This document shows positions 41,352-44,300 of a stretch of DNA of 64,000 nucleotides, piece by piece; the first letter of the stretch is position 1, and each line of letters begins with the position of its first letter. The stretch is from Lingula anatina (Eukaryota; Animalia; Brachiopoda), in contig CM120640.1 in assembly GCA_051362555.1 (NCBI GenBank), positions 27,366,503-27,430,502 on the forward strand. The letters are read 5' to 3'. Below the pieces are notes generated by a model. It did no database searches. It was not told the origin of the DNA and saw only the letters and a program-made list of their open reading frames with translations. The translations under genes were made by a program, and so were the position numbers.

Positions 41352-44300
41352 TTATGACCTAAACAGTAGCATTCTTTGATAACATTTCTTTCCAACAAAC
41401 CCTGCATATTCCTTGACATCGCCCTCATCTCTTGCCCTTGGATTTAGTGCCTTGTACACAGTATAGGGCATTGCTTGTCTTTCAAACAGCACTAAAACTT
41501 CATCCAGGTTTACAACACCGTTCTCGTCAACTGCAGAGGAAAATAAAAACATCAAAAACTGACTCATTCTTAAAAGATATCATCATTTGTTAGCAAGATT
41601 TTATTGTTTACTTGCTATACAGTCTCAAGTAACAAGCTCTCAGAAATAAATAGACCACCATTAATAAAAAAAAAGATAGCCATCTGTTGCTTGAAGATTT
41701 TGACTTCACATAATCAAAATTTATTATTACATGTACCTTTATCTGCATCTTCAAACCTGTTGTACTTTTTAACATCTAGTTTTGGTGTACAAGCTTCAAT
41801 GGGCACCCAAGTGCAAGCTTCAGGACAAAGAAGGAATGAAGGTACATATTGGCCCTAAACAAAAACAAAGCAATGATTCAATAAAAGTCATACATATCTC
41901 ACTTTATAGTATTTATCTTTGGATTAGCACAGGGTTGTAAACTATGTTTGGGATTAAGGATTTCTTAGCTGCTACTAAATTCAGTTTTCTAGTTATAATT
42001 TTTTTCAGTCTTGGATAATGCGTTAAAAATGGATATGTGCATTGTGATAACTATCTACTGTTAAATAAAAAACTACTAGAATTGTATCAGGAAATGTGAG
42101 AACAAACAATTACAATTGAACAAAATCTTACGACATGACAACATTGCTGTACAAACCTTGTATTTCATTTTGGGACATGAATGTATATAAAATCCCATAT
42201 AGTAATATTTTAGATCAGGAGCTTCTTTTTGTAGCGACCTTGTGAAAGCAATTTCCCTGTTAAAAAGATTTTATATGAATATACTCACATCTGTACATGT
42301 AAAATACATTTTTGAAATCCTTACAGTTAAAAAAATTATACAATTCAAACAATACACCACCCCCCTCCCAAGAAAAGTCAATATACACTTTTTCATTAAC
42401 AATACCTACTGGATTTAACACAACATTTATAATAACAGTTGTACAGTAACAGTATGTTCTTCCTTTGGTACCATTAAAGTAATATTACAAGTCAATCTGT
42501 AAGAAAATAAGACAAGAAGTAAACATACCTGAGAGCACTGTATGTCCCTAGATTTAGGAACTCGTAGTCTGGATCATAGTAGAGATAAACAGAGGAAACG
42601 CAGTAAGGTAGAATGTCTATCACTCCCACAGCTATGAGTTTTCCATCCAACCAATATTGTTGGTGAAATGAGCCATATCCACATCGAGGGCCATTGGATG
42701 GTTTTTCAGGCTGTATATTAAACAATGTGATAAAACAATTTTTGAAAGGGTAAGCCTTGTTAATTCTAAATAATTAATTATTTTTAAATCATTCTACAAT
42801 TTGAGAATATAGAAATAAATATATACTAAAATAGGAAATATAAAAAACATTTAGCATTTAGAAAACTATTTAAACATGCAATCCTTTCAAGAGAGTTAAA
42901 AGATGAGAATCATGGTAATTCATCACTGAAACTCACCTCCAAAGGAGAATCGACTAAGAAACTCTTGTAAGTGCTTTTGGTATTTTCATGAGGTTTCTCT
43001 TTGTGAATACCAATCTGATACTTTTTAAAAATTTCATATGATTGTTCATATGAGCTATCAAACTCTGCAGTGTCTCTTGCACTCCTTGCAGTGTGTGGGG
43101 TAGCTACAAGTCTAATCTACAAGGCAACAAAAACTTGTAAATGAGGTGAAGCAAGCCAATATTAGTCATACCTAAGAAAGAAAAACATGAGCAAGGAGTA
43201 TGAGGCCACCATTTTTTCACATGATCAATGTGCAAGATCCTGTAACTTCAAATTTTATCAAGATATATGTATATATATATCAAGAGCAATGGAATTTGAT
43301 AATATTGGGGGGTGGGTGTTTTTTTTCCCCATGATATGGCTTGCTTCATTCATTCAAAGCTTTTGTGTAATTTCACTTCAACTAATACCTGAAGAGGGGA
43401 TTCCACCAAAAAACGTGTGTATTGCTGTTCTGAGGGTTTGCTAGGTGGATCTTTATGTACAACCATTTGGTATTTTTTATATATGCTGTGTGACTCTTTA
43501 AATGTGGCATCAAACTCCTTGCTTCTTGGATTGCTCTGCACTAGTTTAATCTGGAAAGTATGTCATTAAACAAATACCTTTTTTTTAGATCTAATGTCAG
43601 ACGCAAAATTCAAAGTGTCATATTTGATATAATAGTACAAAAACACAAATGTGTGCCCAAAATCAGACAAATTTTAGCTTTATAAACCAAAAAAAAAAAA
43701 AAATTACACGTGCGGGTTATTTCAATTTAATGAACTTTGATTTTGCCTATAATAAATAATTCAACACATGGCATGATTCAAAACTGCTAATACAAATGAT
43801 TACCTCTAATTTATGCTTTGGATTTTCAGCTGATAATTCTTTAAGCCATTGATCTATGGATTTGGGAGAATTACCACTTGGATTTTCCTGTAAAATAGTA
43901 AGTAAACAGTATGAATATATATAAAATATATTATTGCATTGCTTTGTGCCAATTTTACCATTAATAAACAACAATATATTTGCTTCTGAAATAATACCCA
44001 ACAAGATAAAATGATACCACACTTTTTCTGTTGTTGAACTTACCATCAATCCATGTGATTCTGCCTGCCCTTCCTGGTGCACTTTTGCTAACTTTTGTTT
44101 CTTTTTCTCCAACCTGAGTAATTTTGCTTTTTTGCATGGAGGTTTAGTTGGATCTGGACCTTTACCTTTAAAATTCATAATAAACAGAACTATATTAACA
44201 TGAAGTGTGTATGGCTAAGTGATAACTTTGAAACGTCTTCAAGACTTAAAATGACACCTGATTGAGGAAGAAAGACTTTTACCAAAATTATTAGCGTGTT

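Follow-up and report, generated by a model that had tools for sequence, protein, structure and literature searches.

The window analysed here, a 64,000-nt stretch of genomic DNA from the brachiopod Lingula anatina, carries on its minus strand an ATE1 gene. The identity of the gene, already claimed in a preliminary description made from the sequence, is supported by the PF04376 and PF04377 domains (ATE_N and ATE_C), which scored above the cut-off in isoform A and isoform B alike, and by the match of the downstream exon to human ATE1-2 (E 2e-31). The closest proteins were the RefSeq ATE1 isoforms X1-X4 of Lingula anatina itself (XP_023930829-32), which correspond to two first exons combined with exon A or exon B, with one copy per isoform in all four. 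The A/B alternatives are therein already modelled, with a few residues unlike those of the window (another haplotype or assembly), and mechanism and history are absent from the models. The cassette and its flanks comprise the following features, given in the direction of transcription.

43804..43886, minus strand: upstream constitutive ATE1 exon, ending in HKLE, with its acceptor at 43886, placed by sequence and RNA junctions
43389..43550, minus strand: exon A, 162 nt, the first copy, with a 7a-like core and its own 11-aa tail, 54 aa, the majority isoform
43117..43388, minus strand: A-B intron, 272 nt, the sole strongly structured one among the 10 ATE1 introns tested
42937..43116, minus strand: exon B, 180 nt, the second copy, 60 aa, with a 6-aa insertion near its start and its own tail, about one third of junction reads
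42529..42710, minus strand: downstream constitutive exon with the GSFHQ motif

Exons A and B are both open in frame 0, flanked by AG and GT and in phase 0-0, and the introns around the cassette measure 253, 272 and 226 nt. Their peptides are 43% identical and reach a global BLOSUM62 score of 119.5, compared with a maximum of 32.5 among 2000 shuffles, which bears out the earlier reading of two open, homologous phase 0-0 exons with canonical splice sites; adjacent homologous exons of equal phase are the arrangement expected of tandem-duplicated mutually exclusive exons. Both copies match human ATE1-2 residues 275/282-326 with the FTRFLCSSPLE segment included in each match, and this indicates that the tail lies inside each Lingula copy, as had also been claimed. 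Within 43116-43060, the 18-nt insertion of exon B resembles a short internal duplication, with near-repeats 21 nt apart, and leaves a 9-mer common with A in a shifted frame.

At its 5′ end, the gene has homologous alternative first coding exons on the minus strand, 46973-46889 and 45381-45258, both spliced to 44930 and both in RefSeq. Scored against the first exons of vertebrates, the upstream one resembles the 'EYF' type (95 vs 57), and the downstream one is only slightly closer to the 'EYKG' type, at 63 vs 56. The human N-terminal ATE1 event is dated to Chordata in PMC8373072, and the duplication of the first exons would be either older than that dating or a parallel one. A splice from the upstream into the downstream first exon (46889>45381) was found in 4 reads of RNA run X1 and 2 reads of run X7, and on our reading of the sequence this join would bring an early stop that closes the first frame ahead of the second ATG, in the manner of an upstream ORF. 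The region between the first exons at 46000-46630, with reads on both strands and many different loose ends, is probably a dispersed repeat. The motifs CCGGAAGT and TGACGTCA lie near 46400. In mouse, a bidirectional promoter lies between exons 1A and 1B (PMC2773024). At 49530-49661 on the plus strand, head to head with ATE1, lies a gene for branched-chain keto-acid dehydrogenase E1 beta.

The use of the two exons was evaluated in seven of nine same-label raw RNA runs (X5 and X6 were left out), of which 6-30% each was read, and junctions were listed only when covered by at least 3 reads from 2 starts. Read depth on the cassette was low and came from a single study. Over runs X7, X8 and X9, the upstream exon was joined to A by 28 reads (9, 14 and 5, respectively) and to B by 11 (3, 7 and 1), and the downstream exon was joined to A by 15 (4, 7 and 4) and to B by 11 (5, 3 and 3), such that each copy was connected to both flanks, with 43 A and 22 B reads in a total of 65; X1 added 2 further reads from the upstream exon to A, and X2, X3 and X4 had zero junctions within the cassette. 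Both B junctions mapped 1-2 nt off, from which we infer exon-end variants in the sequenced animals. The X7-X9 animals carry fixed exonic differences from the window (17 positions listed over ~730 exonic bases, 42480-44220) and may represent a separate population or cryptic species. That both A and B are used in mRNA, as the preliminary description had claimed, is practically certain from these counts, and with 22 B reads the refuting outcome that it had named, a complete lack of reads including exon B, did not arise.

All 39 listed reads from the upstream donor led to A or B, and all 15 listed reads from the A donor led to the downstream exon. The junction comparison that had been proposed earlier therefore came out in favour of A and B joining both flanks, and across the seven runs, three of them with useful coverage, it gave no listed A-to-B or upstream-to-downstream join, although up to 2 such reads per run would stay hidden. 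As a join needed 3 reads in a run to be shown, mutually exclusive splicing of A and B is likely rather than proven. A and B might instead be independent cassette exons, or B a decaying copy, in line with its 6-aa insertion, its long branch in the tree, its lack of the Cys present in 25 of 27 second copies, and low counts in which rare double inclusion could hide; with B open and contributing 22 of the 65 junction reads, and with the A-donor (15/15) and upstream-donor (39/39) reads all taking the exclusive routes, we regard this as very improbable.

The reading frame does not account for exclusivity, because the A-only, B-only, A+B and skip-both joins all keep it (4/4); double inclusion and skipping would both escape frameshift-triggered NMD, and the earlier statement that this pathway cannot enforce exclusivity holds. 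Steric hindrance between splice sites would call for a branch point no more than ~50 nt from the upstream donor; the candidate one here is ~226 nt from the A donor in linear sequence. The A-B intron itself is distinctive in its predicted structure. When the 10 ATE1 introns were compared, it alone folded better than 200/200 shuffles (z -3.5), and its end-to-end duplex reached -40.5 kcal/mol (z -5.8), with the other nine at z -2.1 or weaker. Together with windowed scans for exon-intron pairing, this analysis yielded the following elements.

43337..43366, minus strand: predicted 5′ arm of a zipper stem, beginning 22 nt past the A donor, with a possible extension to ~43324
43127..43158, minus strand: predicted 3′ arm of the zipper stem, over the B pyrimidine tract, stopping 10 nt short of the B acceptor
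43504..43523, minus strand: exon A segment, complementary at 18 of 20 positions to intron 43190-43209, with a predicted helix of -30.9 kcal/mol
43190..43209, minus strand: intron element with exon A as its main predicted partner and exon B as a weaker one; the helix with exon A crosses the zipper stem
43167..43185, minus strand: pyrimidine tract and AG followed by GTATG, recursive-site-like, the sole match in the window, with 0.31 expected by chance
43159..43168, minus strand: CTAAT segment that we take to be branch-point-like, predicted unpaired beside the stem
43081..43089, minus strand: 9-mer common to A and B in different reading frames, predicted to pair with the intron element (-23.7)

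The zipper stem (43366-43337 : 43158-43127) is predicted to form 29 bp with a probability of ~0.95, and would thereby place a helix over the 3′ splice-site region of the second exon, as in the human R1-R3-R4 module. Read depth was zero at 43129-43187, and the intronic arms of the helices had no RNA coverage. The helix in exon A was matched by 0 of 113 shuffles, the best of the other 18 intron-exon pairs reached -19.6, and no variant within its exonic arm (43504-43523) is listed in the RNA reads. In folds of the growing transcript, this helix had a probability of 0.89-0.97 until the 3′ end passed 43135, after which the zipper dominated (0.66-0.96); in full-length folds the probability of the exon-A helix was 0.00-0.29, depending on the chosen end, and forcing this helix cost 3.9 kcal/mol.

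These folds suggest a two-state RNA switch as the means of choosing A or B, a model that we hold with slightly more belief than doubt. In the first state, the 29-bp stem would zip the A-B intron and hide the B pyrimidine tract, such that A is used. In the second, intron 43209-43190 would pair within exon A, which it can do first during transcription, and the resulting helix, crossing the stem, would repress A and free the B acceptor, such that B is used when this state is trapped; the crossing helices are taken as mutually exclusive by assumption. The predominance of A reads agrees qualitatively with a switch whose stem leads to A.

Intron 43209-43190 could alternatively act as a classical single docking site that pairs with A or B and silences its partner, with the zipper secondary. 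One 24-nt segment is indeed the best partner for both exons, the joint score was reached by 0/113 shuffles (3/113 for the B pairing alone), and the 9-mer is common to A and B in different reading frames. However, the pairing with the B 9-mer has no ensemble weight, with a probability of 0.0 in every full fold and a cost of 6.5 kcal/mol when forced, and a variant present in 9/9 reads (X7-X9) at the B 9-mer weakens it from -23.7 to -17.6, yet no A+B junction is listed there; a single docking site is therefore improbable. It is also conceivable that protein splicing factors, or the AG/GT site at 43172/43171 in the role of a decoy or of a recursive splice site, impose the exclusivity, with the helices tuning the ratio or being incidental. 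The AG/GT match is unique within the window, folding of an AU-rich 700-nt RNA is weak evidence, and DZF proteins have reportedly been tied to ATE1 and to mutually exclusive splicing. Nevertheless, chance alone would yield 0.31 such motifs, a recursive route would permit skip-both products, none of which is listed at a threshold of at least 3 reads per run, and in its stem the A-B intron stands far apart from the other introns of the gene, which makes this explanation unlikely and leaves the two-state switch as the one we lean to.

The preliminary description had further claimed that the duplicated unit is larger than that of vertebrates. In vertebrates the shared tail exon is 33 nt long, and in a mammal-type model (P0212) SPLE is followed at once by a later exon, as would be expected if the shared exon is short. 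The claim is upheld, as the human 7a and 7b exons are 129 bp each (PMC7797038) and the Lingula copies encode 54 and 60 aa as against 43 aa, the copied unit being 11 residues longer than the 43-residue vertebrate unit. For other animals, unit length and order were deduced from gene models that wrongly include both copies, through comparison of 426 proteins, and refer to protein models rather than DNA. The tail is repeated between the copies in 20 models (spacing 52-67; 54 in 14), and the 15 of these that have a species name are all protostomes, namely 10 molluscs, Strigamia, Tachypleus, Ixodes and 2 Polyplax. In 100 models the copies are spaced by 43 residues with no tail in between, the named ones among them being vertebrates and the hemichordate Glandiceps, and two irregular models, of Lottia and Columba, match neither layout. 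In the isoform pairs of Mytilus and Dermacentor the differences span the whole unit, tail included; the forms of Antedon and Diadema (the Diadema pair coming from two species) differ over 43 residues and have the tail in common. Judged from these protein sequences, the larger tail-carrying unit thus appears to be a protostome trait and not special to Lingula, and vertebrates, hemichordates and echinoderms appear to alternate 43 residues and share the tail.

In ticks (P0325 vs P0400), the second copy of the Ixodes model is unlike the alternative form of Dermacentor and keeps the tail Arg, and ticks may hold three copies. Among the best 80 of 348 metagenome loci, the translations upstream of GSFHQ revealed no animal exon-intron cassette layout, and these loci looked mostly like transcripts or intron-poor genes.

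To place the duplication in time, trees were built on a 43-column core alignment, with the copy order of Antedon, Diadema and the pair P0157/P0307 assigned by resemblance. First and second copies split with a support of 94/91 in a 42-row tree (Seriola, Nannospalax, Plakobranchus, Stegostoma, Batillaria, rows without a species name and outgroups being omitted from the split) and, across both lineages, with 95/96 in a 58-row tree (Seriola, Nannospalax, unpaired bilaterian rows and outgroups omitted). The best trees accordingly group the copies by position rather than by lineage, and AU tests leave the alternatives unrejected (p 0.077-0.49): p was 0.18 for separate protostome and deuterostome duplications (42 rows), whose tree has a log-likelihood 17 below the best, 0.077 for a vertebrate-only duplication and 0.49 for a Lingula-only duplication (43 columns, 42 rows). 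The phylogeny called for in the preliminary description has thus separated the copies by position and left separate protostome and deuterostome duplications standing in the test. The contrast between same-order and crossed similarity (156/170 positive) was set aside as evidence on origin, because unequal rates alone yield it.

The residues show a marked polarity between the copies. At the position equivalent to human E309, K occupies 26 of 27 first copies and D or E all 27 second copies; the tail Arg, in the 19 protostome pairs listed, is present in 19 first copies and 1 second copy. The E309-equivalent site varies among 13 outgroup-like proteins with a single copy (K in four, R in two, E in three, D in two and another residue in two), and this lability makes convergence plausible. 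An apparently intronless, animal-like ATE1 at 4409-5878 of a 9-kb contig (L005) has an Arg tail together with the acidic residue typical of second copies, which indicates that single-copy genes can hold either state.

With respect to 7a/7b, the A/B pair has the same 5′ boundary and the same order, at the protein level and in two-copy models, and a different 3′ boundary, since 129-nt exons with a shared tail are replaced by copies that both contain the tail. The same 54-aa unit occurs in the same order in molluscs, chelicerates, a myriapod and an insect, and a Lingula-specific duplication is therefore unlikely. Between the two origins that had been offered, independent duplication or an intron change after an ancient duplication, the second is what the best tree depicts, as an ancient duplication with a boundary change, and the first is unlikely in its Lingula-only form. 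Orthology of A/B to 7a/7b is favoured, and the sequences suggest, with a fair degree of probability, that both pairs derive from a single ancient duplication. The deuterostome layout (43+43 aa, shared tail) would probably be the older one, and each copy would have gained its own 11-aa tail on the protostome stem.

A different history, possible and distinctly less probable, would have a protostome ancestor with a single fused 54-aa exon that was re-duplicated, or independent duplications, with second copies converging on acidic, 7b-like residues. One cDNA-mediated event could delete 7b and the intron preceding the tail, so that the exon layout is accounted for in two simple steps; the AU test (p 0.18) tolerates this history, the K/acidic site toggles among single-copy outgroup-like proteins, raw BLOSUM scores put most protostome second copies nearer 7a than 7b, and the fly Ate1 event, in the same region, is scored convergent in table S5 of PMC9741552 (2022). 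It has to contend, however, with the log-likelihood lower by 17, with the starred split between first and second copies, with an order and polarity constant in 27 ordered pairs, and with PMC8373072 (2021), where the internal ATE1 event is dated to Bilateria with octopus as an example.

The single ancient duplication, which we prefer, might reach deeper than Bilateria. In the pair P0157/P0307 the alternative block spans 43 aa and the tail is shared, with 23 differences inside the block and 5 outside. On constitutive columns the pair groups with the octocoral Paramuricea (96/87). This cnidarian placement is insecure: one with vertebrates also survives testing (p 0.095), and the second form of the pair falls with vertebrate 7b, as expected of a chordate. 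Five Hydra models have one form only, and no named cnidarian stood among the 120 matches listed by a homologue search directed at this group. A Cys considered as a cnidarian marker was rejected, being present in ambulacrarians and outgroups too. An anthozoan origin of the pair would make the layout with a shared tail ancestral and that of protostomes derived. A tentative and, as a whole, doubtful scenario would then be that the duplication predates the cnidarian-bilaterian split and was always exclusive, with Lys and Asp/Glu copies, that protostomes absorbed the tail, and that the Lingula switch differs in having a coding-exon helix cross the intron-zipping stem.

The dimer interface of human ATE1 comprises S278-E280, K285, E305, D308-E309, G311-E314 and R317-F318 (PMC11283454). 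The choice between A and B would swap Lys for Asp/Glu at the E309 position and, in protostomes, would also remove the Arg at the R317 position. Because E309 and R317 are both in this interface, isoforms A and B may differ in dimerisation, and the conserved charge difference offers a concrete hypothesis for the retention of two isoforms. Taken as a whole, the locus is best read as expressed tandem copies that are likely exclusive, likely stem from the same ancient duplication as 7a/7b and would be chosen by two rival helices, a composite that we judge marginally probable.

The age of ATE1 7a/7b is disputed among three papers, which place it after Chordata, in Bilateria, or as convergent in fly, and the distinction between own-tail protostomes and shared-tail deuterostomes makes this question testable. 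The boundary split would exemplify an exclusive cassette that shifted its boundary, or one that was lost and then rebuilt in the same place, and the 272-nt intron, small enough for a minigene, offers a far more compact setting than the 30-kb human locus in which to study control by RNA structure. The exon pair was already annotated in RefSeq, and a bilaterian age was in print (PMC8373072). In the literature outside subscription journals, nothing was found on Lingula ATE1 splicing, the unit-size split or invertebrate ATE1 RNA structure; what is added here is the boundary difference between whole lineages, the conserved contrast in charge at a position of the dimer interface and a candidate RNA switch.

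Compared with vertebrate 7a/7b (Kalinina et al., 2021, PMC7797038), the Lingula pair is alike in the gene, the upstream boundary, the 7a-like-first order and, probably, the in-frame either-or use, and differs in its unit of 54/60 aa with its own tail, as against 43 aa with a shared tail. That paper describes the R1-R5 RNA structures of vertebrate 7a/7b and holds that invertebrates lack a 7b homologue; the sequences compared here show otherwise. Like R3-R4 of vertebrate ATE1, the predicted helix of the Lingula A-B intron lies over the stretch immediately before the second exon. Unlike human R1-R3-R4, where one intron element pairs upstream of both exons, Lingula has no docking shared in the manner of R1/R4, as the 5′ arm of the stem scores -11.3 upstream of A versus -40.5 upstream of B, and the rival helix uses exon A itself. 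By the criterion of PMC8373072, which includes identical splice sites, the protostome 3′ boundary does not qualify, and the unit-size split is absent from the accessible parts of both PMC8373072 and PMC9741552. In the docking-site/selector clusters of Dscam, 14-3-3zeta, Mhc and srp (PMC6071210, PMC4691838), choice is made through alternative pre-mRNA base pairing, as proposed here, whereas the two main predicted helices of Lingula share no nucleotides, would compete by crossing, and have one arm in coding sequence.
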